The position numbers and the translations under genes were made by a program. From contig JAIXRY010000015.1 of assembly GCA_027484965.1 (NCBI GenBank), positions 1,622 to 65,621 of the forward strand: a stretch of 64,000 bases of DNA. The letters run 5' to 3'. Positions 4,454 through 54,204 of this stretch are shown here, in pieces. The DNA is from a bacterium. Its GTDB lineage: Bacteria > Patescibacteriota > Minisyncoccia > Phycocordibacterales > UBA9973. The first letter of the stretch is position 1, and every line of letters begins with the position of its first letter. Below the pieces are notes generated by a model. It was given only the letters and a program-made list of their open reading frames with translations, did not search any database and was not told the origin of the DNA.

Positions 4454-4474
4454 TTTAATTTTAAAAAATATTTT

Positions 4475-5406: not shown

Positions 5407-5421
5407 TCTTAATATACATAT

Positions 5422-5772: not shown

Positions 5773-5777
5773 TTTTT

Positions 5778-6398: not shown

Positions 6399-6409
6399 TT
6401 TAAAGGCTT

Positions 6410-6853: not shown

Positions 6854-6865
6854 AACCTAAACTCT

Positions 6866-8222: not shown

Positions 8223-8241
8223 TGCGTAAATTTATTAATTA

Positions 8242-9613: not shown

Positions 9614-9615
9614 AT

Positions 9616-9645
9616 AAAAACCACAAACATATGTTTGTGGTTTTT
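9616..9645 (+). terminator. Rho-independent terminator after map
   Basis: AAAAACCACAAACATATGTTTGTGGTTTTT. Confidence 0.6.
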
Positions 9646-9690
9646 ATTATCACAGAGCATATTAAAATTTGTATGTTAAAATAAATTCAT

Positions 9691-18985: not shown

Positions 18986-19032
18986 AATTAAAAAACCAAC
19001 AATTCTGTTGGTTTTTTAATTTGTGGAAGTGG
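18975..19032. repeat. Long perfect inverted repeat (about 27 bp arms) that includes the tmRNA 3' acceptor end. Likely terminator.
   Basis: CCACTTCCACAAATTAAAAAACCAACA / TGTTGGTTTTTTAATTTGTGGAAGTGG. Confidence 0.55.
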
Positions 19033-19226
19033 AGTAAAGCACCTGCGTGCTTTACGTGGAGAATCGAAAGGAGTTTCATTATTGAACGTAGTGAAATTGA
19101 AACTCACCTGCCGACGTAGTCGGCGATTCCCTTGAATTTTATAATAAAATATCTAGTGATTCGTGAGTCAATTCCTCTAAAAAATACTTACTTGTGACCA
19201 ACTCAATTTATGACGAGGAGTAATAC

Positions 19227-30688: not shown

Positions 30689-30760
30689 TTTAAACCTATA
30701 CACTCTGGGTATGCGGACATTAATTAAAAAACCTCCTTTTGTGGAGGTTTTTTAATTAAT

Positions 30761-30779
30761 GTCCGCCCTCTTGGATTCG
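30761..30779. repeat. 19-bp direct repeat of the tRNA-Ile(TAT) 3' end (att-like scar). The partner is at 32412-32430.
   Basis: GTCCGCCCTCTTGGATTCG is identical at both positions. The upstream copy is embedded in a long palindrome (30713-30768). Confidence 0.6.
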
Positions 30780-31428
30780 CCCGCGACTAATTAGTTTGCA
30801 AACTAATTGTCTGGGCACCAGCTCGTCTATTTTTCTGCTGAAAAATATGACTCCGCTGTTCGAAACCAAACGTACATGAAGCAGTTTATGTACTTAGGGC
30901 GAACCCTCGTTTCACTCGTGTCCACTCTGAATATTCTACTTCGAACCAAATTGAATGTGGATTCAAGTTTTTATCTGTTGAAATAGAGAAAATTAGAAGT
31001 GAACTAAAATCATTAAATTCATTATTAGTTATTGATGAGGATAATCGTTAGGTATTATTGATATTTTCCATTACTTTTGGAGTGAACAATCATCCAAATA
31101 AAGAATTGGTTAGGTTTCGATATGAAACACAATTAAACTCATAAATAAAAATAATTCAATTTTTGGTTAATGTTAAATTAGTTGTGCTTATAATTTTCAT
31201 AACACCCTAGTTGAATTTGGGCTAACTAAATTATATTTAAATATATTGACTTTATAAAAAAAGTAGAGATAAATCTGGTTAATTGTTTTGGTGTTGGCAG
31301 TTTTGATTATACTTTCGATTTTGAAGGTTTAAAAACAAATTCATTATTGAAAATACTGCAATTATTTTGTGGCTTTTTTAATTTCAATAAAATAAAAAAA
31401 GACACAACTAAAAGTCATGTCTTATATA

Positions 31429-32007
31429 TTAATTCGAATAAATTTCCTTCCGTATGTACTTCTCAAATTCAATTGGAAACTTATCCTGAGGCCAACCCCT
31501 TAATGCAGTACGAACTGCAAGTTTATATGACTCCTTCCATGTTCCTTTGAAACTATATAAATCTGGGAAGTTTTCGAAATCTTCTAGAGTTTCGATTTTA
31601 AATAATGCCGAACCATCTGTTTTAAGGTAAACATCAATAGTTTTATCTTTTGCGTCATAAAATATTGATGGAGGGAATTTACATAAAAGAATTACTCCTT
31701 GTTTTTGTAGAATTTCAGAGTCTAGTTCTGTAATAATGGCGCTGGTGTTTTTACCGGGTAGGTTTTTAAATATGCTTACCCAATTTTTTAAAGTTGGAAG
31801 CATCTGGTTAAAATCAAAAAGTTTAATTTCTATTGGGTCAATGGTAATTACTTTCTCACTTAAAATGTCTTTAAGTAAAGGTAACTGACCTAGAAAAAAA
31901 CATAATTCTAATTTTTGTTCTGGTGTTAGAGGTTGTTCTGTTTCGATTTGTTTCTTAATTTCCTTAAAGATTGTCAAATCCTTAATTGTTAAAATTAATG
32001 TATTCAT
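31429..32007 (-). CDS. Hypothetical protein (192 aa), the only ORF between the direct repeats
   Basis: Long ORF with no recognised motif. It is flanked by AT-rich non-coding DNA. Confidence 0.45.
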   Translation of the reverse strand: MNTLILTIKDLTIFKEIKKQIETEQPLTPEQKLELCFFLGQLPLLKDILSEKVITIDPIEIKLFDFNQMLPTLKNWVSIFKNLPGKNTSAIITELDSEILQKQGVILLCKFPPSIFYDAKDKTIDVYLKTDGSALFKIETLEDFENFPDLYSFKGTWKESYKLAVRTALRGWPQDKFPIEFEKYIRKEIYSN

Positions 32008-32409
32008 ATTGTAAATGCTTGATTTACAACAGCATACACCTTTAACTACTTAGTGTCAATAATAAATTACCTATTACAATAGTAGAGAGAAATAATTCAT
32101 ATAAAAATCAGTCTTTATTTTAAGGTGAAATAATTTGTCCAGGTAGGTCAAAAAAGTTGAGTATTATTACCTTAAAAGTACAGCAAAAAACTATCACAAA
32201 ATTTTTGTCATAAATTGTGGTATTTGTTATAACAGAAATAAGTAATAACCTAAATAAGACTTTATCTAAATTTATCAAGTTTGTTGTTATAAAGATACAG
32301 TGGTTCGAATTTCCTGAAGGAATAGTCTTTGATGGAAACAAATTTTGAACCAACAAAATATGCAGTATTTTTAAGGTAAATGAGTTATTTTACGCAATTG
32401 ATTCCAAAA

Positions 32410-32486
32410 TGGTCCGCCCTCTTGGATTCGAACCAAGGACCCCAGAGGTATAAGCTCTGTGCTCTAACCAACTGAGCTAAGGGCGG
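32410..32486 (-). tRNA. tRNA-Ile (anticodon TAT / UAU), CCA encoded
   Basis: Manual fold gives a 7-bp acceptor CCGCCCT/AGGGCGG, D-arm GCTC-AGTTGGTTA-GAGC, anticodon stem CAGAG/CTCTG with loop CTTATAC, and T-arm CTTGG-TTCGAAT-CCAAG. Confidence 0.7.
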
Positions 32487-38027: not shown

Positions 38028-38915
38028 TTATATTTTTTTATACCATTCTTTCATTTCGTCAATTCTTGTTTTGTGAATACAAAGAATTTCTTCTGGAACA
38101 GGGGACATATCTTCTTCAGGTATGAATTTGTAGGGGATTAATTTATTATCTTTTATTTCAAAAAAACAATAACCCATCTTGTGGCTCATACCAAACACAG
38201 GACAAGCGTCCCACGGTGTCTGCATTCCATATCTTGATTTTATCAAAAGTCCTCCAACTTCTCCTTTCCAGAGTCTAGCAAATGTAAAACCTATACTTCC
38301 TACAGTAACTTCGATATCAAAAAATAATTTATTCTTATTATGAGTCATCTTCTGGGCAAGCTCTGAAAGATCTCTAGGATCATTTCTAAGCTGTAAGAAA
38401 GAGTGTCTTAGAGGTGTTTCTGTTTCTATTACAAGTTCTTGAGCATTTTCAAATTCGTATATTCTATACACTTTGTTACTTCCAGGTTTTGAGTGAAATA
38501 TTTCAAGAGTGTTTGGGTCTCCTATGGTTACAGCTTCAATGACTCCTTCGAAGACAAATGCAATCATTGTTGTTACAGCGTGGGATTGTTTTCTTTTGTA
38601 GGCGCGAGTTCCATCGAGAGGGTCTATAGTAAAGTAATAGTTGTGGTTTTTGTCGGTACACTTACGAGAAAATTTTTCTTCAGCAACTATTCCAGCTTTT
38701 GGAAAGTTTTCGTTGATTATATTTATAAAAATTTTTTGCGCTGCAAAATCAGCAGAAGTCACAAGATCTTCTTCTTGTTTATAATCAACAATCTTTGATT
38801 GAGCATGAAATGTAATCCTTTGACGTCTAATTTCAAGGATTGCTCTTCTCACACATTCTTTCATTATTAGACTTACTGTGTTTGGATTTATCTCTCCAAA
38901 TTTATTTTGACTCAT
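38028..38915 (-). CDS. Inositol monophosphatase / FBPase / CysQ-family phosphatase
   Basis: Family signature EEK...IDPLDGT and downstream metal-ligand region. Confidence 0.7.
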   Translation of the reverse strand: MSQNKFGEINPNTVSLIMKECVRRAILEIRRQRITFHAQSKIVDYKQEEDLVTSADFAAQKIFINIINENFPKAGIVAEEKFSRKCTDKNHNYYFTIDPLDGTRAYKRKQSHAVTTMIAFVFEGVIEAVTIGDPNTLEIFHSKPGSNKVYRIYEFENAQELVIETETPLRHSFLQLRNDPRDLSELAQKMTHNKNKLFFDIEVTVGSIGFTFARLWKGEVGGLLIKSRYGMQTPWDACPVFGMSHKMGYCFFEIKDNKLIPYKFIPEEDMSPVPEEILCIHKTRIDEMKEWYKKI

Positions 38916-38980
38916 GTATTTAATGTATAGATTTGATAGGTGAGTGTCAAATTTAAGGTTGTATTTTTTTTGTAGATATT

Positions 38981-39037
38981 GGGACTCGCTGACTACATCG
39001 GTCAGTACTTTTTAATACAGGACTCGAACCAGTAATC
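38981..39037. repeat. Copy A of a short palindromic interspersed repeat (GGGACTCGCTGA(C/T)TACATC(G/A)G...) plus a tRNA-Asp-3'-end-like segment GGACTCGAACCAGTAA
   Basis: Shares 40 to 60 bp with copies at 39671-39738 and 39851-39925. Also 17/19 identity to the tRNA-Asp 3' half at 50366-50386. Confidence 0.5.
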
Positions 39038-39043
39038 TATATT

Positions 39044-39598
39044 TTAAATTCCTTTAAGAATCATTTCCATTTCTGGTATAACAGCACCACTCTTCATTTT
39101 AAACCTTTCTTCTGAAAAACGTTTTCCTGTATCTTTAAAACCTAACTTTTTATAGAATTCAATCGCATTCGTGTTGTATATAGCAACATCCACAACAGTA
39201 TCTTTATTCAAATCAAGAATAGTTTTAGCTTGATTCCAAAGTAGCGAACCAACACCCTTTCCTTGATATTCAGGTTTTATATAAATTAGACTTAATCTGT
39301 TTCCTTGTGTATTTTTTTCGATACGACAAATACCAAGTATGTTATTTGCATTTTTTGCAACAAAAAAAGTTTCACCCTCAGGAGGGTTTGTAATCGTTTC
39401 AATTCTTTTTTGTATTTTTTCTTCAGTGAATGCATTTTTAAATTTATCTTCAATGTCATCAATAGTTATTCCGAATTCTTCATTTGGATATGTAGTAAGC
39501 CATGTCTTATAAAAAACTTCTTGAATTTCTTTTGCATCATCTGGTTTTGCTAATAAAATCTTCACGTCCATTTTTTCTTGGTTTATTATCTTTTCCAT
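39044..39598 (-). CDS. GNAT-family N-acetyltransferase
   Basis: Acetyl-CoA binding motif A IYIKPEYQGKGVGSLLW. Confidence 0.75.
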   Translation of the reverse strand: MEKIINQEKMDVKILLAKPDDAKEIQEVFYKTWLTTYPNEEFGITIDDIEDKFKNAFTEEKIQKRIETITNPPEGETFFVAKNANNILGICRIEKNTQGNRLSLIYIKPEYQGKGVGSLLWNQAKTILDLNKDTVVDVAIYNTNAIEFYKKLGFKDTGKRFSEERFKMKSGAVIPEMEMILKGI

Positions 39599-39670
39599 CT
39601 ATATATTATATCAGCTCTAAAGTTCTATCACTATAAATAAAAACATCTAAGAAGAACTCAAATAGATACT

Positions 39671-39738
39671 GAGACTCTCTGATTATATCAGTAAGCACTT
39701 TTCAATCTCGTAAACTCGATAATGAAAAGTCTTTCGAT
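39671..39738. repeat. Copy B of the palindromic interspersed repeat
   Basis: GAGACTCTCTGATTATATCAGTAAGCACTTTTCAATCTCGTAAACTCGATAATGAAAAGTCTTTCGATG aligns with copy C at high identity. Confidence 0.5.
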
Positions 39739-39850
39739 GATTGAACTCGATCCTTACAGGATCAGTACACCTTTTCGATATATTCGAAACATATTTCTCA
39801 TATATAACGAAAAGCTTTTCGAGTCCCGCACGTAAGCCATGCAGATGGAC

Positions 39851-39925
39851 GGGACTCGCTGATTACATCAGCAGGTACTTTTCAATCTCATAAATTCGAT
39901 AATGAAAAGTCTTTCAAGTCCCGAC
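39851..39925. repeat. Copy C of the palindromic interspersed repeat. A reverse-orientation GAGTCCCG lies at 39821-39828.
   Basis: GGGACTCGCTGATTACATCAGCAGGTACTTTTCAATCTCATAAATTCGATAATGAAAAGTCTTTCAAGTCCC. Internal stem GGGACT...AGTCCC. Confidence 0.5.
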
Positions 39926-39963
39926 GTGAGTGAAGCAGTTCACTCACTACCTTTCTGTGTATT

Positions 39964-40003
39964 AAATAAAAATAACTGAGAAGAACTCAGTTATTTTTAT
40001 TTA
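39964..40003. terminator. Palindromic terminator downstream of the minus-strand TA pair
   Basis: AAATAAAAATAACTGAGAAGAACTCAGTTATTTTTATTT. Confidence 0.5.
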
Positions 40004-40090
40004 TGCGCGGACTAGTAAACGATGTGGGAACTGCGATACGACAACGTAATGGTTATATTTATATACCAACCTTAAAATAAAAATCTCAAA

Positions 40091-40549
40091 TTAGTCTATT
40101 TTTGTATATCCGTATGCAAAAAAAGATTTTAACCTTCCTATAGTTTCTCCTTGAAACTCGACCTCGCTATCCTTAACTTCCTTTTTATGTTTTATTGAAG
40201 CAAGAACTATATGCTTACCATTGATACAATACATAATTCTTAAGCCATAACGAGCACCTTCCTTATCTACTGCCCATCTCATTTTCCAAAGAACCCAATC
40301 TTCTGATAAAAATGGCTGTTGTCCATTTTTATCATTATTAGGTATTTCATTTGGTGTACTGAACTTATTTTTAATTGTACTTGAAATCTGCCTTAAAATT
40401 GGAATAGTAGATATTTTCTCTGAAACAGAAAGTTTTTCGAACTCATCCTGAGTTAAGTCACACTCTAAAAAAGTGGGTTTTATATGTTTAGAAAGTTTTT
40501 TGACGTCTTTCCAAAAATCAGGGCAAGTAAATAGGGTGCAATCATCCAT
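40091..40549 (-). CDS. Candidate toxin: 152-aa protein with a C-terminal RelE/ParE-fold-like core, encoded directly downstream of the Panacea-domain gene
   Basis: C-terminal GARYGLRIMYCINGKHIVLASIKHKKEV resembles the RelE/ParE beta-sheet core (yRi.Y.i....i.il.i.H.k). The roughly 90-aa N-terminal extension is of unknown function. A 9-bp gap separates it from the upstream gene. Confidence 0.4.
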   Translation of the reverse strand: MDDCTLFTCPDFWKDVKKLSKHIKPTFLECDLTQDEFEKLSVSEKISTIPILRQISSTIKNKFSTPNEIPNNDKNGQQPFLSEDWVLWKMRWAVDKEGARYGLRIMYCINGKHIVLASIKHKKEVKDSEVEFQGETIGRLKSFFAYGYTKID

Positions 40550-40558
40550 TTTAGTAAT

Positions 40559-41077
40559 CTAAGCATTTTGATAATCAGGATATTCTTCAACCAAGTTGTA
40601 AGCGGTATTATATTCTACTACTCCTCCTTCATTAGCTGAAAGATAAGGTATTTGTTTGTGAGTAATATCTGCCAATATATTATAAGAATAGTTTGCGTAT
40701 TTATTTAAAACATACTTAACTGTTTTAATCTCCTTAGCATCTAGCCCTACATTAACATTATCTTTTGGGCAATACTCAAACTGACCTTTCTTTTCTATTA
40801 GACCACTACGTACAAGTACGTTTAGATCGGCATTAAAGGAACGCGCCAAAGGACCATATGTTCTCTTTTCATAAATACTTTCAATGTCAGAAATCGGTTC
40901 ATCATTAAAAGCATAGTGAATAAAATCAGAAAAGTATTGAAACTTTGCTAATTTAATTTTATCGTCAATACCGTTAGTTTCTTGAATTATTGTATATAGA
41001 AGTTTTTGAGATTTAGTGAGGTCCATACTTATATTATTATACACTAATCTAGTAAAGGAATGTAATTCCAAAATCAA
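40559..41077 (-). CDS. Panacea-domain (DUF4065, SocA-like) putative antitoxin. True start probably MDLTKSQ.
   Basis: QKLLYTIIQ...KRTYGPLARSF follows the KLqKLLYf...W.yGPv pattern of DUF4065. Confidence 0.5.
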   Translation of the reverse strand: MILELHSFTRLVYNNISMDLTKSQKLLYTIIQETNGIDDKIKLAKFQYFSDFIHYAFNDEPISDIESIYEKRTYGPLARSFNADLNVLVRSGLIEKKGQFEYCPKDNVNVGLDAKEIKTVKYVLNKYANYSYNILADITHKQIPYLSANEGGVVEYNTAYNLVEEYPDYQNA

Positions 41078-41229
41078 GTGTGAATAACATAATATAGTAT
41101 AATTTATATTATGTCAAGTATTATAGTACTTTGTCAGTCATTATAAAATTAAAGACAAGCATAAAACTACTTTTTTATATTTAAAACTTTCTTAACTTAA
41201 TGATATCAATCAATAAAGAATGGTCAAGA

Positions 41230-43521
41230 TTAAATTAAAATATCACTCAAGTTTTTCCAACCCTTAAGAGCTGTGGTGTACTCATATTCGGCGCTAGTAT
41301 TGATTTTCCAGCCATTTGAGCCATCTTGAACAGCTATACCGCCATAGTAACCTTTCTTACTTTTGAGCCACGCTTGGAGCGATTCAGCGCGTTCTTTCGC
41401 CCCTTTTGCAGTATCTCCACCTTTAGTATCAATAATGTAGATACCTTTTTTAGTTTTTATAATCCAATCAGGGTAAAACAAACTCTCTTTATTCTTTGTT
41501 GTGTCGTGATAGGGAATAGAAAAAAACTCGCTACCTAAATCACCATTCTTATACCACCAAATAATAGAGTCATTTTCTTCAAGAGATTTTATAAAGTTTG
41601 TTTCATTTTTTCTGCCAGTATATTCTTTCTCAATAAAAAATGGTTGCATAGCACTTTTCTTAACTTTCATTTCTTCATATTGGTCAGTATAAAAAAGTGA
41701 TGGTCTTGGTATTTCAATTTGTTCGGTCCTCTTTGAGCGATCTGATTTACGGTTTACTTCTTGCTCTCGAATCGGACGATATGTCGCTAATGCTTTACCG
41801 ATAACATTACTTAAAACACTATTTACCTTTAGAAAATCACCGACAACAATATGGTATATTTCTAATCTTTGTTCTTTCAATAATCCAAGAAGCCACACAT
41901 TCAAAGCGGTCTTTAATTTACCCCAAGAACGCTCTGGAGCAAACTTTTTATCCTCATCAATTTGCTTAGCAATACTATTGAAACAAAACAGATTATATAA
42001 TCTTTCTAAATCGTGCTGAGACATTTCTTGCTCATAACTACTACCTTCAGCAAGAAGCTCTTGTTTGAAGTTATCGTAATCATCAATCTCAACATCAACA
42101 ATCAAACCATTCGTCACTCTTTTATTTAAGACAAGTTTCTTATCAGTCAATTTTTTTATGATATTTGCTTTTGTGTCTTTCTCAGAAATACTAAAATACT
42201 CATTAGCTGTTTCCTTGAAAGTTTCTTGAAAACTATCACCTAAGTCATTGTAATCAGTTCGGCTCATAAACACAGAATCAAGGACTATTGGCTCAACAGA
42301 CGGGTTACGATAACTACTATTTATTGCTGGTCTATTTTGGTCAGCAGATTTTGAATATCCTACAAGCACCTCATTGCGTTTATAGTTTGTATATAAATAA
42401 CCAAGATTAAGTTCTGGTATTGCGAAATGTGTACCTAGTGGCATACGCAATATACGCCCTACTGTTTGAATAGCAAAAGTAGCATTCTTTATTTCTCTAA
42501 ACATAACTAAGACACTTGCTCGTGGACAATCCCAACCAGTAGCTACTGCTTGTTTAAATAGTAAAAAAGAAACTGGAGAATTGTGACTTTCTATATCCTT
42601 AAGATTAACCTTGTCGTCAGATAGCCAGACCGCTATTTCGTCTTCTGTAATACCTTTAGCTTTTAGAAAACTAATAATGAAACCTTGTTTATTATCATTT
42701 GTACCCTTACTTGCTTTGTCATCGTTTGGTAATTGAATTAAAACTAAAGGATTTATATCAAGTTTTAGTTTATCCTTATAAAAATCTAAAAGTTCTTTTC
42801 TTTTATTAAAAGCTAAAGTGAGTAATGCATCACTATCATTCAAATCTTTCATTTCTTCTAAATCTTCTTTTGTTTGAAAAACGATTTTCTCTTTAATCAA
42901 TCCCTCTCTAACGACATCTTTGCGATCCACATCAACAGTAATACCTTTGGTTTGAGGAGTAGCAGAAACACCAATAATGATTCTTGGCTTAATAACATTC
43001 TTGATTAAATCACTCGCTAGAACTGTATCTGAAGCAATATGTTCTTCATCAATAATCAACACAACATCACGCTTAAGTAAATGTGTGTTTTCTAAATACA
43101 TATCAAAAGTAGTATTAGCTTCACCTTCAGTACGAAGTTTCCTATTGTCTTTTGATCTTGAAACAAGTTTTTGCCAGTTTATAAAAAACACTCCATTTTT
43201 AGGTAGATTCCCGTCTCGTAAATTATTCATATCCACAAGAGGATTTTCACTCGCTCCACCATAATAAGAAAAAAGTTTCTCTTTTGACTGCATTGCGAGA
43301 GAATCTGAGTTTGTTATCCAAATAAAACTAACATTAGCACTAGAAAATCTTGGATCAGAAACAATATCTCTTAAGAACTGAGCCATCATTATTGTTTTAC
43401 CTGAACCAGTAGGAGATTTGAAAGTCAGGTTCACATTAGTATCGCCAAGTTTCCATAAAGTTAGAAACTTATCTTTAAGTTGTGATATGGCTGTTTCTTG
43501 AAATGGTTTTAGTGTAAGCAT
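41230..43521 (-). CDS. res: Type III restriction enzyme Res subunit (SF2 helicase plus C-terminal PD-(D/E)xK nuclease)
   Basis: Helicase motif I KSPTGSGKT. DEAH-like LIIDEEH. C-terminal nuclease motif YPDW...IYIIDTKG (PD...D.K). Immediately downstream of mod in the same operon. Confidence 0.7.
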   Translation of the reverse strand: MLTLKPFQETAISQLKDKFLTLWKLGDTNVNLTFKSPTGSGKTIMMAQFLRDIVSDPRFSSANVSFIWITNSDSLAMQSKEKLFSYYGGASENPLVDMNNLRDGNLPKNGVFFINWQKLVSRSKDNRKLRTEGEANTTFDMYLENTHLLKRDVVLIIDEEHIASDTVLASDLIKNVIKPRIIIGVSATPQTKGITVDVDRKDVVREGLIKEKIVFQTKEDLEEMKDLNDSDALLTLAFNKRKELLDFYKDKLKLDINPLVLIQLPNDDKASKGTNDNKQGFIISFLKAKGITEDEIAVWLSDDKVNLKDIESHNSPVSFLLFKQAVATGWDCPRASVLVMFREIKNATFAIQTVGRILRMPLGTHFAIPELNLGYLYTNYKRNEVLVGYSKSADQNRPAINSSYRNPSVEPIVLDSVFMSRTDYNDLGDSFQETFKETANEYFSISEKDTKANIIKKLTDKKLVLNKRVTNGLIVDVEIDDYDNFKQELLAEGSSYEQEMSQHDLERLYNLFCFNSIAKQIDEDKKFAPERSWGKLKTALNVWLLGLLKEQRLEIYHIVVGDFLKVNSVLSNVIGKALATYRPIREQEVNRKSDRSKRTEQIEIPRPSLFYTDQYEEMKVKKSAMQPFFIEKEYTGRKNETNFIKSLEENDSIIWWYKNGDLGSEFFSIPYHDTTKNKESLFYPDWIIKTKKGIYIIDTKGGDTAKGAKERAESLQAWLKSKKGYYGGIAVQDGSNGWKINTSAEYEYTTALKGWKNLSDILI

Positions 43522-43525
43522 AAAA

Positions 43526-45214
43526 TTATAGACGATTTATTTCTTTATAAACTTCAAGGATAGGTTCAGGAATATCCTCGACACGAATCAAACTTGAACT
43601 ATATTCATTCTTATACTCATTTTTACCCCAACCAAAAACATAAAGAACTGCTGGAGTTTTTTCTTTCTCTAGCTTAGAAATAAGTTCTTTAATTTTTGAC
43701 TTATCTTCTTTGAAGTAAATAGCTGTCTTTTTATTAACGCCTTCAAAAACCTGATACCATTCATTTTTCTCTATTTCATTGAGGGTGTCCTCACGAACAG
43801 CAATCATTTCACCTGCTTGATAAGTGACTTTAATTTTGGCTTCATCAGAAATCTTATGCAGTTTATCTACATTTACAAGATCAGTTTTGTAATACGATAA
43901 ATTACCACCAAGACCATCAACCTTTTCGCCTTTCTTATTTTTGTATCCCTTAATAACTCTTTTTATACGCTCATAAGTCACTTCCTCACAGATATTATTT
44001 TCATTGTTAGTACAAAGAATAAACTTGCGATTACCACCATCTTGCTTATTGAGTTCAAGTACGGCGTGTCCTGTTGTACCAGAGCCAGCAAAGAAATCTA
44101 GGACAAGACCATTTTTATTCTGTTCTACAGCAGTAAGACATTCTTTAACTAAATGCAGTGATTTTGGAAATGGGAACTTGTCAGGAAGTATTTGTGATAG
44201 TAGCTGAGTGCCATAGATATTTGCATTAAACTTAGAATCATCCCAAACTGTTTTTCTAATATAGTTTTTCTTTCCACGTAAAATGGAGTATTGCTCACCT
44301 TGTTTTTTGGCAACAAGTTCATCAGCTATTGTTTCAACAGTATCTCTAGCAAATCTCCATCTTCGCTCTATTCCGTTTCCGTCTATAGGGTAAATATAAA
44401 TAAGACCATTTTTTAGCTCATTTGCTAATTTTGGATGAAATGTATCTTTGGGGACATCTCCAAATCCAACAATTTTATTTCCATCAAATATAATTGAATA
44501 AAAACAATTAGGTGACCCTTCTCTTTTTGAGTTTTCTTTACCCCAATCTCTAAATGGAGTCAGTTCCTCACCAGAACGCAATTCTGGATTTATATATCCA
44601 CTTTGTTTTGGATAAACAAAATAAATGTATTCGTGATTATAAGAAAAGTTTGTTCCTTGAATTCCTCCTTGGTTGTGAATTACAGTTACACAGTCTATTG
44701 CCCAGCCATAAAAGATTTCTTGTAGTAAAAGACCTAATGTATTTAATTCGTTCTCATCAATAGCACACACTAACGCACCCTTAGGAGAGAGTAATCCCTT
44801 AGCGAGTTTTAATCTTGAGTACATCATAGACAACCATTTACTGTGCCTAAAATCATCTTCTTTGTCTATATAATCATTATTATAACGCCAACTATTATTT
44901 CCAGTATTATATGGGGGATCAATATAAATAACATCAATCTTGCTTTTGTGTGTATAGTTCAAAACAGAAAGAGAGTGATAATTGTCACCCTCAATCAAAA
45001 GATTGCTTGGCGCTGAATTATCAGAAACAATTTTTCTATTCTTAACTTCTCTAAGAATTGGTATATTCTCTTTGCATTGTAAAACAACATCTTCTGGTTT
45101 ATCTTCCCAGATGAGTCCATATTTTTTATCCTTGAGTTTTTTAATTTCTAACTCAAGTTCTGAAATACGAGCAAGAAGCTCTTTTTCGTGTAATTGTAAT
45201 TTATTTGTAGACAC
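43526..45214 (-). CDS. mod: Type III R-M Mod subunit (beta-class N6-adenine DNA methyltransferase) with N-terminal coiled-coil and about 160 extra C-terminal residues
   Basis: Motif IV IYIDPPYNTG precedes motif I DFFAGSGTTGHA, the beta-group order. Gene order is mod then res. Confidence 0.75.
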   Translation of the reverse strand: MSTNKLQLHEKELLARISELELEIKKLKDKKYGLIWEDKPEDVVLQCKENIPILREVKNRKIVSDNSAPSNLLIEGDNYHSLSVLNYTHKSKIDVIYIDPPYNTGNNSWRYNNDYIDKEDDFRHSKWLSMMYSRLKLAKGLLSPKGALVCAIDENELNTLGLLLQEIFYGWAIDCVTVIHNQGGIQGTNFSYNHEYIYFVYPKQSGYINPELRSGEELTPFRDWGKENSKREGSPNCFYSIIFDGNKIVGFGDVPKDTFHPKLANELKNGLIYIYPIDGNGIERRWRFARDTVETIADELVAKKQGEQYSILRGKKNYIRKTVWDDSKFNANIYGTQLLSQILPDKFPFPKSLHLVKECLTAVEQNKNGLVLDFFAGSGTTGHAVLELNKQDGGNRKFILCTNNENNICEEVTYERIKRVIKGYKNKKGEKVDGLGGNLSYYKTDLVNVDKLHKISDEAKIKVTYQAGEMIAVREDTLNEIEKNEWYQVFEGVNKKTAIYFKEDKSKIKELISKLEKEKTPAVLYVFGWGKNEYKNEYSSSLIRVEDIPEPILEVYKEINRL

Positions 45215-45216
45215 AA

Positions 45217-45362
45217 AAGGGATGGGTTTTTTGTCTTGTAAAAGCTGGCTACGAAATCACAGAACCCCGCGCCAGCCTGAGCTTTTTACAGCCCCATATC
45301 AGTTTCCCGATATGACCCATCCCTGAGTAGCTGAACGCGGGGTTCAGTATCAGGGATGGGTG
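45217..45362. promoter_or_regulatory. GC-rich cluster of interleaved inverted repeats in the mod / 45478-ORF divergent intergenic region
   Basis: GGGATGGGT appears forward at 45219 and 45353, and as its reverse complement ACCCATCCC at 45315. CAGAACCCCGCG (45260) pairs with CGCGGGGTTCAG (45337). The GC content is very unusual for this AT-rich genome. Confidence 0.45.
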
Positions 45363-45477
45363 TTTTATACCGTATCTATCAATTTTTACATTAAATAGAC
45401 CTTAGGTAAATTAAATTGTCTTGTCTTTTTAGGACAATTTTAGTATAGCAAAAAACACTTAATTTTCATAGTCAAAT

Positions 45478-46791
45478 ATGATAAAATGCTTATGGTTTAA
45501 TACCAATTACAATTACTCAATGAATAAATTAAATCTAAAAGTTAAAGAGCAGATTGCGAGAGTTATTGGAGACAATTTTACTACTAATGAAATTGTTAAT
45601 GTCTTTACTGACGCGAATGTAAAAACAGATATATCTCTTTATGCAAAATGGAAGATAATTCTAAACGGGTTTAGTAATACATCTTCAGAAGAAGTGCTTT
45701 TTTATATTATTGAACAGTTTTGTCATCCTCTTAATTTTCCAGACACAGAAAGCAGATCTGACTTCATTATTAAATTAAACGAGATTCTTAAATATGAGTT
45801 TTTAGATTTAGTAGCCACAGAAAGAACAGTAAAAATTGTTGATATAAACGATGAAACTATACAAGAAAGAATACGAAAACCAGCAAAAACTTCAACTGAT
45901 TATATAGTAGATGCATTAAACTTTTTTAAGAATGAATACAATAAGGTTAGGATTTCTGGTTTAGATTATGAGTACTCATTAGGAGTAAATGCTAGTAGCG
46001 AAGAATTAGAATTAGACGATGGAGAAGAATATAACGCAAAACTTGAAGCCATAAAACGACTAAATAATGTTGGTTTAATTACTGAATATAAAATTGAAGA
46101 AAGAATGGAAAGTGGAGGATATTATGTTTGGGATTATGCTATTTGTAAAATAGACGAGCAAAAAATTACTGGTCAAGAAGAACCATTAGCTACAGATGCT
46201 GACATAAAATCAATAACCAAGAAAATAATACACGAACATACTCATAGATTTGAAAATAGTATTCAAGAAAAAGGAATTGATCTAAATATAAAAAATAAAG
46301 AAGATAATGTGGTTATAAAAAATAAAAAGAAAATCACATTACCTAGATTTCCAAGAACAGAATGGTCTAAAGTTTCAATAACACTTCTTGATGATACGAA
46401 TATGCTTCTTTCTGATGGAAAAAGCACGAAACCATCTTCTTTTGAGGGGATAGGTTGTGAGGATGGTAGAAATGGTAAACCAGATGAAAACTGGGCTTTT
46501 TTAGTAAGATTAGCTAAGGGTGATGGTCAAACAATTCCTATTTCCAAAAAAGAACGAGAGAGTAAGAAAAAACAAAAACAGAAGATTACAGACATTTTAA
46601 GGAAGATATTTCAAAACGAAACCGACCCTTTTGAAAATGAGTCAGGAGGAGTTTACAATGCAAAGTTTAATATAAAATATAATACTGACAAGAAAGAAAA
46701 AACTGATAGTAGATACTCTGATTTAGAGGATGTATTCTCTGAAATGACAGCGTCAACCGAAGAAGATATGAATAGTGATTTTTCACAATAA
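45478..46791 (+). CDS. Hypothetical protein (437 aa), island cargo adjacent to the R-M system
   Basis: Long ORF with a K/E-rich low-complexity C-terminus. No recognised catalytic motif. Confidence 0.45.
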   Translation: MIKCLWFNTNYNYSMNKLNLKVKEQIARVIGDNFTTNEIVNVFTDANVKTDISLYAKWKIILNGFSNTSSEEVLFYIIEQFCHPLNFPDTESRSDFIIKLNEILKYEFLDLVATERTVKIVDINDETIQERIRKPAKTSTDYIVDALNFFKNEYNKVRISGLDYEYSLGVNASSEELELDDGEEYNAKLEAIKRLNNVGLITEYKIEERMESGGYYVWDYAICKIDEQKITGQEEPLATDADIKSITKKIIHEHTHRFENSIQEKGIDLNIKNKEDNVVIKNKKKITLPRFPRTEWSKVSITLLDDTNMLLSDGKSTKPSSFEGIGCEDGRNGKPDENWAFLVRLAKGDGQTIPISKKERESKKKQKQKITDILRKIFQNETDPFENESGGVYNAKFNIKYNTDKKEKTDSRYSDLEDVFSEMTASTEEDMNSDFSQ

Positions 46792-46917
46792 TATAAAATA
46801 GAGAAAAGTATAGAAGCCACAACATATTTCTGTTGTGGCTTTTTGCCCTTGTGATTTTTCGTCCCCTGTAAATGAGAGCTCGAAACTCTCATATTACAAA
46901 TCATTAGAAAAATTACT

Positions 46918-47181
46918 ATGAAAAGTAAAAAGATTTCTATAAGCGATCCATCGTCTGTGTTCACCACTTATGACTTAGGTTGCAGTACTGCACTTTTATG
47001 TGCAGATTTTGAGCTTTTGACGATTGAGAAAGACGATCCAAGAAAAGCTCTTTTTGTATTCCATAAGAAAAGTGGAATAGAAGAAACAGCAAATAAGTAT
47101 TTTGCTGATAAATTAGATGTCAAAGCAAGGTCGTATTTTGACAACTTGAAAGCTCTAAAAAATAAGCTGTACGGAAACTAA
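46918..47181 (+). CDS. DUF5659-like small protein
   Basis: TTYDLGCSTALLCADFELLTIEKDDPRKALFVFHK...YFDNLKALKNKLY matches the DUF5659 pattern common on mobile elements. Confidence 0.5.
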   Translation: MKSKKISISDPSSVFTTYDLGCSTALLCADFELLTIEKDDPRKALFVFHKKSGIEETANKYFADKLDVKARSYFDNLKALKNKLYGN

Positions 47182-47184
47182 TCT

Positions 47185-47391
47185 ATGATGTTGTCAGATG
47201 AAAACATTATAGTATTTCAAAAACTCTATAAAGAGCATTTTGGAAAAGACATAAGTAAAGAAGATGCATATAAACAAGGCACAAAGTTTTTACGATTGAT
47301 GTCTTTGGTGTATCGTCCGATGACACGAGAAGAGTTTCAGTTTGCTCAAGAACGACAAGCAGAATCTTTGCGAAAGCAAAGAATTCCTTGA
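47185..47391 (+). CDS. Small hypothetical protein (68 aa)
   Basis: ORF tightly packed between the DUF5659 gene and the Rep-like gene (4-bp overlap). Confidence 0.35.
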   Translation: MMLSDENIIVFQKLYKEHFGKDISKEDAYKQGTKFLRLMSLVYRPMTREEFQFAQERQAESLRKQRIP

Positions 47392-48608
47392 AAAACACCG
47401 ACAACATAAAAATCATTATGGATACTATTATTATAAAAATACACGGTCCCAATAAGTTTGATTTTAAAGATAGGTCACTATTTCTACCAGAGATAAATCC
47501 TAGAAAATATGCAGATTTGTCACCTAGTGAAGTACGATCACGAAACTCGTCGCGCCCGTACCTCAGGAAGTTTGTCCTATATCCTAAGGCAAGCGATGAC
47601 TACATACCTAGAGTTGAAGTATTTGAAACTTTATTAAAAGATCGTAATTTCGTTGTTTATATTATGAAAATCACTTTTTCAGCCCCAAAACTACTTTATT
47701 GGAATAGTTTGCAGGAGGTAGGAGAAAAAGATAAAGATAAACTGTTTTATGCTTTGCGGATGTCTCTTGAGAATGTTGGTATCGGGGTAGAGACTGAATC
47801 TCTCGCGAACGCAACACTGGAGGCTGTGCACGTATGTAAAAATATACCTTTACCTAAAACGATAAAAATGCGAGATATAATCAATGAATTGGCGAAAATA
47901 GATATTAGTAAGGCATTTGATGTATCGGACAAGCAAGACAAAAAAGGTGCACGGGTGCTTAATATACACTCGGGGACAGTGGAATGGTCCTTGTACGATA
48001 AGATTTCAGATTCTATTCGTCCCAATAATAAACGTAGTGATAAGGGGCGTATGGGTGAAGAAAAAACAATTGTTGGAATATATAACCTACAAGACAGAGA
48101 AGTATTCCGTTACGAGTATCGTTTAAAGAAAACACAAACAACAAAAAGAGAAATAAATAAATTACTTAAAAGAGATTCCAAAACACCAGTCATTTTTAAA
48201 GATCTCTTTACTCCTGATTTGCTCAAAAAATTAGTACTCAATTCTTGGTACTTTATAGTAAATAAACCAGAAAATCAGCTTGCTCTATTTAGTGAAATAA
48301 ACAAATTAAAACTTTTACTGCACATACTCTCTGAGGCAAGTAAAAATGGTAAAAAAGCTCATAGTATGGATAATGCTTTTGTCTCATATGGACTAGCGAC
48401 TGTTATGCACGACGTTGGAGCAAAAGAGGTAAAAGGAGCTGTATTCGATGTCTGGAATAAAGATCATCCTGAGCGACTTACAAAGAAAATAAAGACAGCA
48501 TTAGATTTAATGAAAGGACTACCAATATCTCACAATATCGCTTTCATCGACTCTGAACTTGAAAAGTTTGAACTTATTAGCTTGGCTTCATTACAAAAAG
48601 GTATATAA
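47388..48608 (+). CDS. Putative rolling-circle replication initiator (Rep_trans / pT181 RepC-like)
   Basis: WSLYDKISD...VFRYEYRLKK parallels RepC FIRIYNKKQE...LWRVEIELKRD. This is a recalled-consensus comparison only. Confidence 0.4.
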   Translation: MKNTDNIKIIMDTIIIKIHGPNKFDFKDRSLFLPEINPRKYADLSPSEVRSRNSSRPYLRKFVLYPKASDDYIPRVEVFETLLKDRNFVVYIMKITFSAPKLLYWNSLQEVGEKDKDKLFYALRMSLENVGIGVETESLANATLEAVHVCKNIPLPKTIKMRDIINELAKIDISKAFDVSDKQDKKGARVLNIHSGTVEWSLYDKISDSIRPNNKRSDKGRMGEEKTIVGIYNLQDREVFRYEYRLKKTQTTKREINKLLKRDSKTPVIFKDLFTPDLLKKLVLNSWYFIVNKPENQLALFSEINKLKLLLHILSEASKNGKKAHSMDNAFVSYGLATVMHDVGAKEVKGAVFDVWNKDHPERLTKKIKTALDLMKGLPISHNIAFIDSELEKFELISLASLQKGI

Positions 48609-48728
48609 TGTAAACATCTACCCGTTTTTATGCAAAAGTATTTTTATTATAGACAACTTATGTTTTCTATACAGATGGGCATCCTTGTCCGCTTTGCTTT
48701 TGCAAACGGGTAGAGCAAGGATGCCCTT

Positions 48729-50384
48729 TTGTGTACTATAATAATTATGAATAACGATTACTCAAAAATTAAATACTTTATTTACGCTCGAAAATCTCAA
48801 GAGGGAGAGGAGAAGCAAGTTCAGTCTATTCCTGATCAATTACGAGAAGATGATATTGTCGCTAAACGATACAATATCAAGCCTGTAGGGATTTTAACTG
48901 AAGAAGGATCTGCAAAAGAACCAAACAAGAGACCTGTATTTGAAGAAATGCTTGCCCGTATAAAAAATGGTGAAGCAAATGGAATTATCTGTTGGAACTT
49001 AAACCGTTTATCAAGAAATCCAGTAGATAGCGGAAAACTTCAATGGATGCTCCAAGAGGGTTTAATTCAATCAATTTTAACACCATCCAGAGAATACAAA
49101 CCGAGTGACAATGCAATTATTTTTAGTGTGGAAAGTGGTGGAGCAAATCAATATATTCTAGATTTGAAAGTGGGAGTACGGAGAGGATTAAACAGTAAAA
49201 TCATTAAGGGGCAAGCGCCAATACTTGCACCGCTTGGATATTTGAATACTAAGCACGAACTTCGCGGAGAAAATTACATAATAAAAGATCCTGAACGATA
49301 TGAACTTGTTAAGAAAGCTTGGGAGTTGATGCTTACTGGGGAATACTCTATTCCTAAGCTTTTAAAGATAGTAAATAATGACTGGGGGTTGAGAACACGA
49401 AAAAGAAAACATCGTGGCGGTGGAGAGGTTAATAAAAGTACTATGTATGGTGTTTTTACTAATATCTTTTATACAGGACTTTATTTATATAAAGGAAAAA
49501 TAGAAAATGGTATACACGAACCAATGATTACTATTGAGGATTTTGATAAAATGCAACAGATTCTTGGGAGGTATGGAAAACCAAGAGTTAAAAGTCATAT
49601 TTTTACCTACACAGGTACTATGATATGTGGGGAGTGTAATAGTGCAATCACTGCGACTACAAAGACCAAGTTAGTAAAAACTAAAAATGAATTGAAGGAT
49701 TATACTTTCTACTATTGTTCTCGTCGCAAGAAAGGTGCAGAAAAATGTACCCAGAGGGAATATATACCACTTAAGGAGATGGAGGATATCATAAAAGAAG
49801 AATTAGAAAAATATACGATTTCAGAAAAGTTTAGAGATTGGGCTTTGAAGATTTTGGAAGAGGAGCACACAGGTGAAGTGTTGGAACGTGAAGCTATCTA
49901 TAAGTCACAATTGAACGCATTAGACGTATCTCAAAAGGAGCTTGATAATCTAATAACTATGAGAATGCGAGAACTAATAGATGATGATCAATATACTTCA
50001 CGAAAAAAGGAGCTAAGTCAGACAATTGCTGTAATGAAGCAGAAAGTATCTGAAACTCAAAGTAGGGCACAAAATTGGGTCCAATATACTGAACAGGTGT
50101 TTGAGTTTGCACATATGGCTAAAGCAAGATTTGAAGACCCAAAAACTACCGTAGATGACAAGAAAGGTATCTTTATGGCTCTTGGTTGGAACTACATCAT
50201 AAAAGACAAAAAACTTTATATTTCTCAATGTGATTTACTAGAACCGATAGTAAAAAATCGTGACGCTGTAGAAAGTGAAATAAGTCGGTTGGAACTGGAA
50301 GAAAACATTGGTACAGAAAGACAAAACACCCCTTTCGGAGTGGCTTGTCCATTACTGCGCAGTCGGCGGGACTCGAACCCGTAA
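48729..50384 (+). CDS. Large serine recombinase (serine integrase). Start possibly at 48747.
   Basis: N-terminal resolvase catalytic domain (YARKSQEG with catalytic Ser, ...R..R), recombinase domain, and zinc ribbon CGEC...C. The 3' end overlaps tRNA-Asp on the opposite strand. Confidence 0.8.
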   Translation: MCTIIIMNNDYSKIKYFIYARKSQEGEEKQVQSIPDQLREDDIVAKRYNIKPVGILTEEGSAKEPNKRPVFEEMLARIKNGEANGIICWNLNRLSRNPVDSGKLQWMLQEGLIQSILTPSREYKPSDNAIIFSVESGGANQYILDLKVGVRRGLNSKIIKGQAPILAPLGYLNTKHELRGENYIIKDPERYELVKKAWELMLTGEYSIPKLLKIVNNDWGLRTRKRKHRGGGEVNKSTMYGVFTNIFYTGLYLYKGKIENGIHEPMITIEDFDKMQQILGRYGKPRVKSHIFTYTGTMICGECNSAITATTKTKLVKTKNELKDYTFYYCSRRKKGAEKCTQREYIPLKEMEDIIKEELEKYTISEKFRDWALKILEEEHTGEVLEREAIYKSQLNALDVSQKELDNLITMRMRELIDDDQYTSRKKELSQTIAVMKQKVSETQSRAQNWVQYTEQVFEFAHMAKARFEDPKTTVDDKKGIFMALGWNYIIKDKKLYISQCDLLEPIVKNRDAVESEISRLELEENIGTERQNTPFGVACPLLRSRRDSNP

Positions 50385-50431
50385 CCTCCCGCGTGACAGG
50401 CGGGTGCTCTAACCAGTTGAGCTACGACTGC
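50358..50431 (-). tRNA. tRNA-Asp (GTC)
   Basis: Manual fold gives acceptor GCAGTCG/CGACTGC, D-arm GCTC-AACTGGTTA-GAGC, anticodon stem CCCGC/GCGGG with loop CTGTCAC, and T-arm ACGGG-TTCGAGT-CCCGC. No encoded CCA. Confidence 0.75.
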
Positions 50432-50483
50432 ATATTTGTTTTTAGACTAAACAATCTTTTTAAAAGGGAAGATGTAACCCATG

Positions 50484-50557
50484 TGTCGATGGGAGGGAAC
50501 GATCCTCCGACCTTAGCTTTATGAGTGCTACGCTCTAACCAACTGAGCTACATCGAC
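50484..50557 (-). tRNA. tRNA-Met (CAT), elongator Met or possibly Ile2. Atypical T-loop ATCGTTC and an A.A mismatch at 31:39.
   Basis: Acceptor GTCGATG/CATCGAC, D-arm GCTC-AGTTGGTTA-GAGC, anticodon loop CTCATAA. Confidence 0.55.
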
Positions 50558-50652
50558 ATGTGTTTTATATGACATTATATGAAGTATAGCAAAAAACATA
50601 TAGTGTATTTTATTCAAAAAATGACTGATGAAACCTGTCACGTTTCGAATTG

Positions 50653-50723
50653 TTGCGGGGCCCGGAATCGAACCGGGGTCCCAAGGTTATGAGCCTTGTG
50701 AGATGCCTCTTCTCTACCCCGCG
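50653..50723 (-). tRNA. tRNA-Met (CAT), probable initiator tRNA-fMet
   Basis: C1.A72 mismatch at the top of the acceptor stem (CGCGGGG / CCCCGCA). A11:U24 in the D-stem (GAGA/TCTC). Anticodon loop CTCATAA. T-arm CCCGG-TTCGATT-CCGGG. Confidence 0.6.
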
Positions 50724-50786
50724 GTAAAGTGTTCTAACATCATAACATTTTATTATAGAATATTCAAGCTTTTATTGTTCTCTATG

Positions 50787-50858
50787 AGCCATCAGTGAGA
50801 ATCGGACTCACGCTCTCTCCCTTACCAAGGGAGTGCTTTGCCACTAAGCTATGATGGC
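50787..50858 (-). tRNA. tRNA-Thr (GGT)
   Basis: Acceptor GCCATCA/TGATGGC, D-arm GCTT-AGTGGCA-AAGC, anticodon stem CTCCC/GGGAG with loop TTGGTAA, T-arm GTGAG-TCCGATT-CTCAC. Confidence 0.7.
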
Positions 50859-50963
50859 TTATTTGTTTTTATAATAATAGCTTATTTCTTGTGCGTTTCA
50901 AAATAGATTGTTGACTTTTTTATTTTTAAATGTATTATAAGATAAAAAGAAAGGAAACAAAAT

Positions 50964-51482
50964 ATGTCAGGAAAAATAAAAGATTTGCCATACGGTAGCC
51001 AGATAAGAACTTTCATGTCTGAAATTTTTAAAATTGCAAAAACGTCCCCAATAAAGATACCATATATCCTAGAAGAACTTCGAAATAAATTGGTAGAATT
51101 AGACAAAAAAGATGTTGGCCCAAGCATTTTACTCTCTAAAGGTGAGTATGTACTTGTGATAGGTACTCTAAATATTAGAAAAGAAGAAATTTCATCTATT
51201 TGTAAAGAATTTGCTATTAAAGATGTGAGATTTTTTGATGACTATGATAAAATGTCTGGAATAGAAGATGTAATCTCAAGTTCGAGGTGCGTTGCTGTTA
51301 TTTGTGGTCCTGTGCCACACTCTTTACCAAATGAGGTCATTTCAAAATATGATGAGAAGATTTTTAAAGCCAGAGTAAGCGGTAAACTGAAAATTACTCG
51401 CGGCAGTTTTTTAGAGACTATTGAGAAAATGATGCTTGATAGAACGAAGAAACATTTAGAATACGAACAGTCACGAAGTTAA
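50964..51482 (+). CDS. Hypothetical protein (172 aa)
   Basis: ORF with clear coding character. No recognised motif. Confidence 0.4.
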   Translation: MSGKIKDLPYGSQIRTFMSEIFKIAKTSPIKIPYILEELRNKLVELDKKDVGPSILLSKGEYVLVIGTLNIRKEEISSICKEFAIKDVRFFDDYDKMSGIEDVISSSRCVAVICGPVPHSLPNEVISKYDEKIFKARVSGKLKITRGSFLETIEKMMLDRTKKHLEYEQSRS

Positions 51483-51553
51483 GCTTCGTGATTTTATATT
51501 GAATAATAGGTAGTTTAATAAAATTAAATATAGGTTTATAATTTTTTTTATAA

Positions 51554-52459: not shown

Positions 52460-52560
52460 TAACAAAAAAACACTTTTCTCGACAAAGTGTTTTTTTGTTA
52501 TTTAAATTGAATTCCACTATTAATTGTATTGAAGTCTTTTTGGAGAGGGTGGTATAATAA

Positions 52561-53247: not shown

Positions 53248-53249
53248 AT

Positions 53250-54173: not shown

Positions 54174-54204
54174 AATTAAAAATATAATTTACTGACAAGA
54201 TTTT

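Follow-up and report, generated by a model that had tools for sequence, protein, structure and literature searches.

The window, a 64-kb stretch of DNA from a lineage labelled here as Saccharibacteria (Patescibacteria), contains a tract of repeat units (38972–39947) on both sides of a GNAT acetyltransferase gene. With moderate confidence, we read these repeats as conserved, structured end modules of small integrative elements that target tRNA and transfer-messenger RNA (tmRNA) genes; the modules would lie next to the attachment (att) site, and the elements would be mostly miniature or decayed and stacked on one another. The initial annotation had proposed serial att scars, or an element mimicking the att site, linked to the 3′ end of tRNA-Asp. 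This proposal is supported by the adjacency of the tract to tRNA-Asp, by unit ends derived from the tRNA, by a direct repeat at tRNA-Ile and by further copies matched to the genes next to them. The part of the idea that concerns serial integration holds up; mere decaying scars do not, because the helices of the units are kept by compensatory changes.

Repeat units behind tRNA-Asp

The comparison covered about 165 kb in total from a handful of genomes and contigs. L009 is a relative whose IMPase is 89% identical to that of the window at the protein level and 85% at the nucleotide level. L021 is a contig from the same sequencing run and sample as contigs identical to the window. L016 and L024 carry a GNAT homologue (76–78% identical to the window GNAT), L003 represents a third lineage, and L015 is another Saccharibacteria genome, which carries an element behind tRNA-fMet. 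The minus strand of the window is the strand of the genes flanking the tract and of the tRNAs. The features of the tract are as follows.

50357–50431, minus strand: tRNA-Asp(GTC), whose T-loop, T-stem and acceptor 3′ part are copied in the units
39963–40003, minus strand: T1, a perfect 18-bp bidirectional terminator hairpin, located directly 3′ of tRNA-Asp in L021 and L009
39840–39947, minus strand: unit a, a complete miniature module, assigned by sequence, fold and a covariance model (138.5 bits)
39926–39947, minus strand: hairpin hpX of unit a, with the loop CUGC, followed by GU
39916–39923, minus strand: P1-left of unit a (CGGGACUU), a mirror of the tRNA-Asp T-loop and 3′ T-stem
39877–39910, minus strand: hairpin A of unit a, followed by ACCU
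39858–39872, minus strand: hairpin B of unit a (GCUGA-UGUAA-UCAGC)
39850–39857, minus strand: P1-right of unit a (GAGUCCCG), followed by an acceptor-like tail (UCCAUCUGCA)
39743–39828, minus strand: unit b, a diverged copy, assigned by its fold and by orthologous copies in L009, L003 and L024
39821–39828, minus strand: P1-left of unit b (CGGGACUC)
39749–39763, minus strand: hairpin B′ of unit b (GAUCC-UGUAA-GGAUC), preceded by a long hairpin A′; the P1-right strand is GAGUUC
39671–39738, minus strand: unit c, with hairpins A and B (covariance model 52.9 bits), the second copy of the initial annotation
39634–39660, minus strand: T1′, a decayed copy of T1 (89% identity)
39044–39598, minus strand: GNAT acetyltransferase gene (Pfam)
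38972–39043, minus strand: unit e, assigned by sequence and by alignment to tRNA-Asp, the first copy of the initial annotation

The three copies reported initially are present where they were placed. The 21-nt 5′ core is found at 38981, 39671 and 39851 with at most three mismatches (0.00 expected, 100 shuffles), and a 39-nt 3′ part is present at 39697 and 39877. A repeat search returns the two long copies, units a and c, as a 63-nt pair with 89% identity. The hairpin CTGAnnnnnTCAG occurs in all three copies, and the GAGTCCCG element described in reverse orientation exists at 39820–39828. The latter is the left closing strand of unit b, a fourth and diverged copy that had been missed. Within 38981–39925, the interval originally given for the family, the copies are real, but the family is not confined to it; related copies lie at 19034–19135 and 30761–30905.

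Preservation differs among the units. Unit a is 100% identical in L009; the CCA end is not conserved at the unit, with an A in the window and a G in L009. Comparison of unit b between the window and L009 shows compensatory changes from C-G to U-A in P1 and in hairpin A′. In unit c, the right end is decayed (GAGAGUCUCAG) and the left P1 strand is absent. Unit e consists of a direct copy of tRNA-Asp positions 44–63, the 3′ strand of hairpin A, a hairpin B variant (CUGAC-CGAUGUA-GUCAG) that is also found in the tRNA-fMet element of L015, and a right copy (CGAGUCCCAAUAUCUAC). The hairpin of T1′ persists with three G-U pairs in its stem, and a U-run comes after it on the minus strand.

The ends of the units resemble tRNA-Asp. 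The core GGGACTCG, said in the initial annotation to be part of the tRNA-Asp 3′ end, is indeed located in this gene (50368–50375). It has four occurrences in 64 kb (0.23 expected), three at the repeat locus and one in tRNA-Asp. Sharing an 8-mer with one of six tRNAs is not significant alone. The similarity does extend beyond the 8-mer, as local alignment of the units with tRNA-Asp demonstrates (300 shuffles each). The left end of unit b matches the T-loop and 3′ T-stem in mirror orientation (12/12), and unit e matches positions 44–63 directly (17/19); none of 300 shuffles reaches either score. The right end of unit a matches directly (14/18; one of 300 shuffles reaches the score). A 16-nt mirror copy in L003 matches the window tRNA-Asp at 15 of 16 positions (0/300 shuffles). 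Each unit is thus closed by two copies of one stretch of its target gene, one mirrored and one direct.

The tract folds far better than shuffled sequence (39640–40010; z = −8.6 and −7.4 on the two strands). Units a (39840–39925, minus strand; z = −4.25) and b (39743–39828, minus strand; z = −3.67) each form a closed three-way junction of P1 with hairpins A and B (A′ and B′ in unit b). Units c and e are incomplete, and neither folds into a closed junction (z = −0.64 for unit c). For the tmRNA-linked copy, z is −3.39, and for the tRNA-Ile-linked module −6.9. Pairing of the mirror with the direct copy as P1 is seen in unit a, unit b, the tmRNA copy and the tRNA-Ile module. In a MAFFT alignment of unit a with the tmRNA copy, made with no hand gapping, 97.8% of the cells pair and 11 of the 30 pairs are changed on both sides; when the partners are slid by one to three columns, pairing falls to 29–44%. 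When segments of eight copies are aligned by hand, 92% of the cells pair and 13 of 22 pairs are doubly changed, although this alignment is biased by the choice of segments and serves as support only. The hairpin B loop UGUAA is kept while its stem is swapped (GCUGA/UCAGC in a-type, GAUCC/GGAUC in b-type units). Judged from these alignments, the helices are under selection and are kept by compensatory changes. G-U pairs lie mostly on the strand of the target gene (at least 8, as compared to 2–3), which points to this strand as the folding one, either as RNA or as single-stranded DNA.

A native structured RNA would explain much of this. The units would then be duplicated copies of a tRNA-mimicking three-way junction, made by read-through from a tRNA or tmRNA operon. 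The left strand would have two alternative partners, the 3′ part of the upstream tRNA and the right strand of the same module, and the RNA would have a role in processing, as a decoy or as a switch. Compensatory change in the helices, the UGUAA loop that outlasts its stem, the strand bias of the G-U pairs and the folding scores (z from −3.4 to −8.6) all suit such an RNA. So does the resemblance to a tRNA minihelix, produced by acceptor-like and T-stem-like strands together with hpX at the 65/66 junction, and so does the retention of unit b in four lineages. We nevertheless consider this account unlikely. Units c and e are visibly decaying, no Rfam family matches, and the further copies described below bear on it as well.

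The scaffold behind tmRNA, tRNA-Ile and tRNA-fMet

The family was searched with a probe for hpX (nine pairs, loop CUGC, then GU). The probe identified two further sites in the window and one in L015. Those in the window belong to the following features.

19034–19135, plus strand: complete tmRNA-linked copy, assigned by sequence, fold and alignment to unit a
30761–30905, minus strand: tRNA-Ile-linked module at the far end of an insertion of about 1.63 kb, assigned by sequence, fold and covariance model
30780–32409, minus strand: the insertion behind tRNA-Ile (about 1.63 kb), bounded by an exact 19-nt repeat and including a 192-aa open reading frame (ORF)
31429–32007: the 192-aa ORF within the insertion, member of a small family (55 representative clusters)

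The tmRNA copy contains hpX (GUAAAGCAC-CUGC-GUGCUUUAC, then GU). Its P1-left strand GGAGAAUCG is a mirror of the tmRNA T-loop and T-stem, P1-right is CGAUUCCC, and hairpin A, ACCU and hairpin B (GCCGA-CGUAG-UCGGC) are located between the two strands. A plain MAFFT alignment gives 65% identity between this copy and unit a. The tRNA-Ile module is longer and consists of an acceptor-strand mirror (GUUCGCCCU), hpX (30870–30891), GU, a T-arm mirror (UUGGUUUCGAA), the inner hairpins and, at its end, an exact 19-nt copy of the tRNA-Ile 3′ end. In L015, the module behind tRNA-fMet ends in a copy of the last 10–11 nt of the tRNA and a second terminator. A covariance model built from unit a and the tmRNA copy only was scanned over the 165 kb. 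It finds unit c (52.9 bits), the tRNA-fMet element of L015 (E = 1e-5), the remnant in L009 and the tRNA-Ile module (E = 0.008), the last being a copy outside the training set; there is no other match in the 165 kb. All copies found lie behind tRNA-type genes and none is dispersed.

Of the 11 nt that come after hpX-GU, 10–11 agree with the mirror of the adjacent gene (window: Asp, tmRNA and Ile; L015: fMet). The adjacent gene is the top match in all four cases, with the tmRNA segment tying at 10/11 with a tRNA-Met of L015. This correspondence raises the possibility of fold-guided targeting. The module would act as single-stranded DNA or RNA whose P1 duplex replicates the T-loop, T-stem and acceptor segment of the target gene; a recombinase recognising the shared T-loop would exchange strands with the matching gene, and new P1 strands alone would retarget the element among tRNA-Asp, tmRNA, tRNA-Ile and tRNA-fMet. 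One scaffold (65% identical) does carry four P1 sequences, each matching a different adjacent gene, and all of its helices are under selection, as far as the alignments can tell. A mirror, a spacer of 55–130 nt and a hybrid direct copy at one end of an insertion would also be the expected trace of folded-hairpin integration. On the other side, there are four pairs of target and scaffold only, and gene conversion from the neighbouring gene could keep P1 matched too. No single-stranded intermediate is in evidence, the examined regions yielded neither rolling-circle nor phage genes, and there is no recombinase candidate. We regard fold-guided targeting as distinctly unlikely.

The tRNA-Ile locus carries the clearest trace of integration. 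The 19-nt sequence CGAATCCAAGAGGGCGGAC is found exactly twice, at 32412–32430 within the tRNA-Ile 3′ end and at 30761–30779. The terminator behind the second copy pairs with the acceptor strand through its stem. In L009, tRNA-Ile is directly followed by such a terminator, representing the empty site as compared to the filled site of the window. An insertion with a direct repeat is a hallmark of site-specific integration; the module is the conserved piece beside the distal repeat. Filled and empty sites are also seen at tRNA-Asp, which in L016 is directly followed by a terminator and GNAT; unit a is missing from L003. Inside the insertion (32290–32360, minus strand), tRNA-Ile T-arm fragments are found in direct (TTGGTTCAAAAT) and mirror (ATTCGAACCA) orientation, 56 and 99 nt 3′ of tRNA-Ile.

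These loci count against the native RNA. A strong terminator separates gene and module in every short copy, with no conserved promoter after the terminator. Close relatives lack the module at these genes (L009 at tRNA-Ile, L016 at tRNA-Asp), and the tRNA-Ile module is 1.6 kb away from its gene, at the end of an insertion.

Terminator stems behind tRNA and tmRNA genes reach into the acceptor 3′ strand at 18976–19031 and 30720–30779 of the window, at 13765–13840 of L009 and at 50–105 of L024. The loops of such terminators are flanked by the gene end and its mirror copy, and a 24-nt mirror in L003 is of the same kind. The whole pattern could in principle be a neutral by-product, in which terminator hairpins grow by template-switch palindrome extension until they mirror the gene 3′ end, and local duplications give the repeats. 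Stems extended into the acceptor strand (tmRNA, the tRNA-Ile repeat, L009 tRNA-Ile, L024 tRNA-Asp and the L003 mirror) are what this process would produce. It leaves unexplained a homologous scaffold of hpX, hairpin A and hairpin B behind four genes in two genomes, the compensatory substitutions, and a 1.6-kb insertion with a 19-nt direct repeat. We find this explanation most improbable and disfavour it strongly; neutral palindrome growth is real in the lineage but cannot account for the shared scaffold.

We favour att-proximal end modules instead. On the target-gene strand, a full module consists of hpX (CUGC), GU, the mirror of the T-loop and 3′ T-stem, hairpins A and B (the latter with a UGUAA-type loop) and a direct copy, which would serve as the right-hand attachment repeat; mirror and direct copy pair to form P1. 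The elements may enter at tRNA and tmRNA 3′ ends by site-specific recombination, with the fold presumably required for the recombination step. The short copies would be non-autonomous or gutted and moved by a recombinase encoded elsewhere. Behind tRNA-Asp, several elements would have piled up serially and lost nearly all of their content. Their remnants would be units a, b and c between tRNA-Asp and GNAT and the rearranged unit e beyond GNAT. Between the tRNA and this stack, a serine-recombinase island of 10.3 kb, unrelated to the elements, would have entered later. Recurrence behind tRNA-type genes, patchy distribution and near-identity across diverged hosts fit a mobile family. From T1 through hpX to the end of unit a, the window and L009 differ at 2–4 positions in about 190 nt (about 99% identical), while third codon positions of the flanking genes are only 67–71% identical.

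Several observations weigh against end modules. A clean direct repeat is found at tRNA-Ile only; that of unit a differs at 4–5 of about 19 nt, and the tmRNA copy matches over just 8 nt. Classical attP sites do not have a mirror of the core 55–130 nt away from its direct copy. The b-type sequence is found in the same place in four lineages, with a 26-nt block identical at 23 of 26 positions, and unit b thus retained looks more like a kept functional element than a scar. The short copies contain no ORF, and no recombinase is tied to the family. The 192-aa ORF has no match in Pfam, PHROG or PADLOC and no recombinase signature. Pattern scans were also negative. The genome collection gave 0 hits and the metagenome collection 2 chance hits in unrelated DNA, in both cases with strict patterns drawn from variable stems and not with the better hpX-GU probe; three strict patterns gave 0 hits in the viral collection.

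Position of the tract and the serine-recombinase island

In the window, the tract is displaced from tRNA-Asp by 10.3 kb. The intervening DNA is described by three features.

40009–50355: island of 10,347 bp between the tRNA-Asp 3′ end and T1, missing from L021
48729–50384: large serine recombinase of about 550 aa, overlapping the tRNA end
45279–45408, minus strand: LOOT RNA

L021 joins window positions 39706–40008 straight to 50356–55482 with the 5-nt overlap TGCGC. In L009, the order is tRNA-Met, tRNA-Met and tRNA-Asp, followed directly by T1, hpX, unit a, unit b and a remnant of unit c (c′). By this order and the L021 junction, the tract natively adjoins the tRNA-Asp 3′ end. The island is a separate serine-recombinase element with a 5-nt overlap, a later insertion between the tRNA and the stack. 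Its cargo comprises the large serine recombinase, two ORFs of unknown function, the LOOT RNA, a type III restriction-modification system and a Panacea-domain antitoxin with a 152-aa partner. The presence of the island varies within one sample, and a near-identical island end is found in L003 too. The units are not att scars of this island; its ends are unrelated to them and only TGCGC is common. Nor are they the RNA repeats of a type III toxin-antitoxin system of the 152-aa ORF, as they are located after a terminator and outside the island of that ORF.

The repeats had been described as bracketing GNAT. They do not make GNAT a cassette, since it is located directly behind tRNA-Asp in L016 and L024. 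In L016, only a terminator separates the two genes and GNAT is without any unit; in L024, the interval between them contains a terminator, an hpX-like hairpin and one unit of b type. By gene order, GNAT is an old native neighbour of tRNA-Asp. T1′ and the right end of unit c occupy the position held in L016 by the tRNA-Asp 3′ end and the terminator before the GNAT promoter. The tract is absent from L003 and L016.

The box TGnTATAAT is conserved 6–7 nt before the ATG of GNAT (window 39599–39625, L016 115–138, L024 280–304); in the window, it reads TGATATAAT. The GNAT mRNA is therefore probably leaderless, and a 5′ leader or riboswitch of GNAT was rejected as an identity for the units on this ground and because GNAT of L016 lacks a unit.

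Relation to known systems and neighbouring observations

Mobile DNA that targets tRNA genes and leaves serial remnants is already known. A folded module with target-matched mirror and direct strands appears to be undescribed in the literature searched. In Dehalococcoides, tandem islands and gene-less, att-flanked remnants lie behind ssrA, the tmRNA gene (McMurdie et al. 2011, PMC3146451). The likeness to the present loci includes insertion at the 3′ end of tRNA-type genes, downstream copies of this end repeated serially in direct orientation, stacking, remnants without integration genes, presence or absence at the strain level, and a serine recombinase of about 550 aa beside the gene in the newest island. 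Unlike in Dehalococcoides, the remnants here are 75–165 nt long and contain a conserved folded module with a mirror of the target and helices that seem to be under selection, with no linked integrase; the serine-recombinase island of the window shares only 5 nt with its site, and its ends are unrelated.

Att sites that work as folded DNA offer a second comparison. The CTX phage attP(+), used by XerCD, and integron attC sites contain inverted target-like copies and a structured spacer, form a paired stem and conserve structure over sequence. Here too, an inverted pair is located at one end of the inserted DNA and pairs into a stem. The target differs, being the T-arm and acceptor segment of tRNA or tmRNA and not dif or attI, and there is no GTTRRRY core. 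No integron integrase, filamentous-phage or rolling-circle genes were noted in the examined regions. An integron attC or cassette was rejected as an identity for the unit, as GTTRRRY is missing at the unit ends and GNAT is a native neighbour of tRNA-Asp.

Miniature inverted-repeat transposable elements (MITEs) and the REP and REPIN families are likewise short, non-coding and hairpin-rich, with inverted closing ends and several copies. Unlike them, the copies here are not dispersed, the inverted ends copy the local target, there is no fixed-length target-site duplication, and a related transposase or RAYT gene is not seen. A MITE, the other possibility raised initially, was rejected; the inverted ends vary and equal the local target, no duplication of constant length is present, and copies are found only behind tRNA-type genes.

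The bridge RNA of the IS110 family contains two guides, which correspond to neighbouring halves of the target and form no stem together. It resembles the present module as a conserved scaffold with short variable segments matching the target in both orientations. Here, however, mirror and direct copy both correspond to one stretch and pair into a stem, and no DEDD recombinase gene is nearby.

Known tRNA-like structures include the tRNA-like domain of tmRNA, plant mitochondrial t-elements and the tRNA-like modules of bacterial Y RNA. The module shares with them acceptor-like and T-stem-like helices, here from a real tRNA, and a hairpin with a U..A pentaloop beside the closing stem. It differs in that two hairpins replace the T-loop and no CCA end is conserved, and tRNA models are silent on it.

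Rfam 15 gives no family match at these sites in the window, L003, L009 and L015. The best hit within 38800–40200 is a His leader (34 bits, gathering score 49), driven by the terminator. ARAGORN and the Rfam models for tRNA, tmRNA and YrlA do not recognise the unit. A three-way junction like that of the hammerhead or the purine riboswitch was compared by eye and rejected, as the conserved cores do not fit. BLAST against phages and plasmids returned no match. For the 192-aa ORF, the family profile has a non-significant match in the PDB to an engineered LAGLIDADG meganuclease (E = 0.06), and the single-sequence AlphaFold model is unusable (predicted local distance difference test score 39).

Att-proximal sequences are usually seen as arms that bind proteins. 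In this family, a small conserved fold is accompanied by a mirror of the gene next to it. A mirror-carrying fold with compensatory change may indicate tRNA targeting that depends on structure and is perhaps templated by homology, or a class of tRNA-mimicking RNA that has gone unrecognised in the reduced genomes of Saccharibacteria. As a practical marker, the combination of hpX, GU and mirror could help to delimit islands in poorly annotated Saccharibacteria genomes. The 10.3-kb defence island, with its type III restriction-modification system and toxin-antitoxin pair, is documented here as polymorphic within a single sample.

The synteny anchors had a limited reach. With IMPase homologues, gene order is gone beyond about 60% identity; with the aspartyl-tRNA synthetase (AspRS) of L009, the closest relatives are at most 71% identical and belong to other phylum-level groups. 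Database neighbours of the proteins belong to Patescibacteria, and only one reference genome, a Candidatus Saccharibacteria metagenome-assembled genome, matches the same tRNA-Asp 3′ part.

Some features next to the L009 stack were recorded in addition. Positions 1–7300, just upstream of the tRNA-Met/Met/Asp cluster, contain a tyrosine integrase (5027–5968) and small phage-like genes beside a tRNA 3′ fragment (7218–7297); a prophage in L009 appears to have replaced the tRNA-Thr that is present in the window. Between the unit stack and IMPase (8232–9768) lie a non-discriminating AspRS and a T-box leader, the latter scoring 52 bits, less than the Rfam gathering score. The nearest relatives of this AspRS (at most 71% identical) are from Parcubacteria-type genomes, which suggests horizontal acquisition. 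The 64 kb of the window is without such a gene. A partial 5′ copy of tRNA-Asp (TAGTCGTAGCTCAACT) is located in the tRNA-Met/tRNA-Asp spacer of L009 (7606–7630) and is absent from the window. The 40 nt 3′ of the initiator-type tRNA-Met are 100% conserved between the window (50612–50651, minus strand) and L009 (7433–7472), unlike the rest of the spacer.

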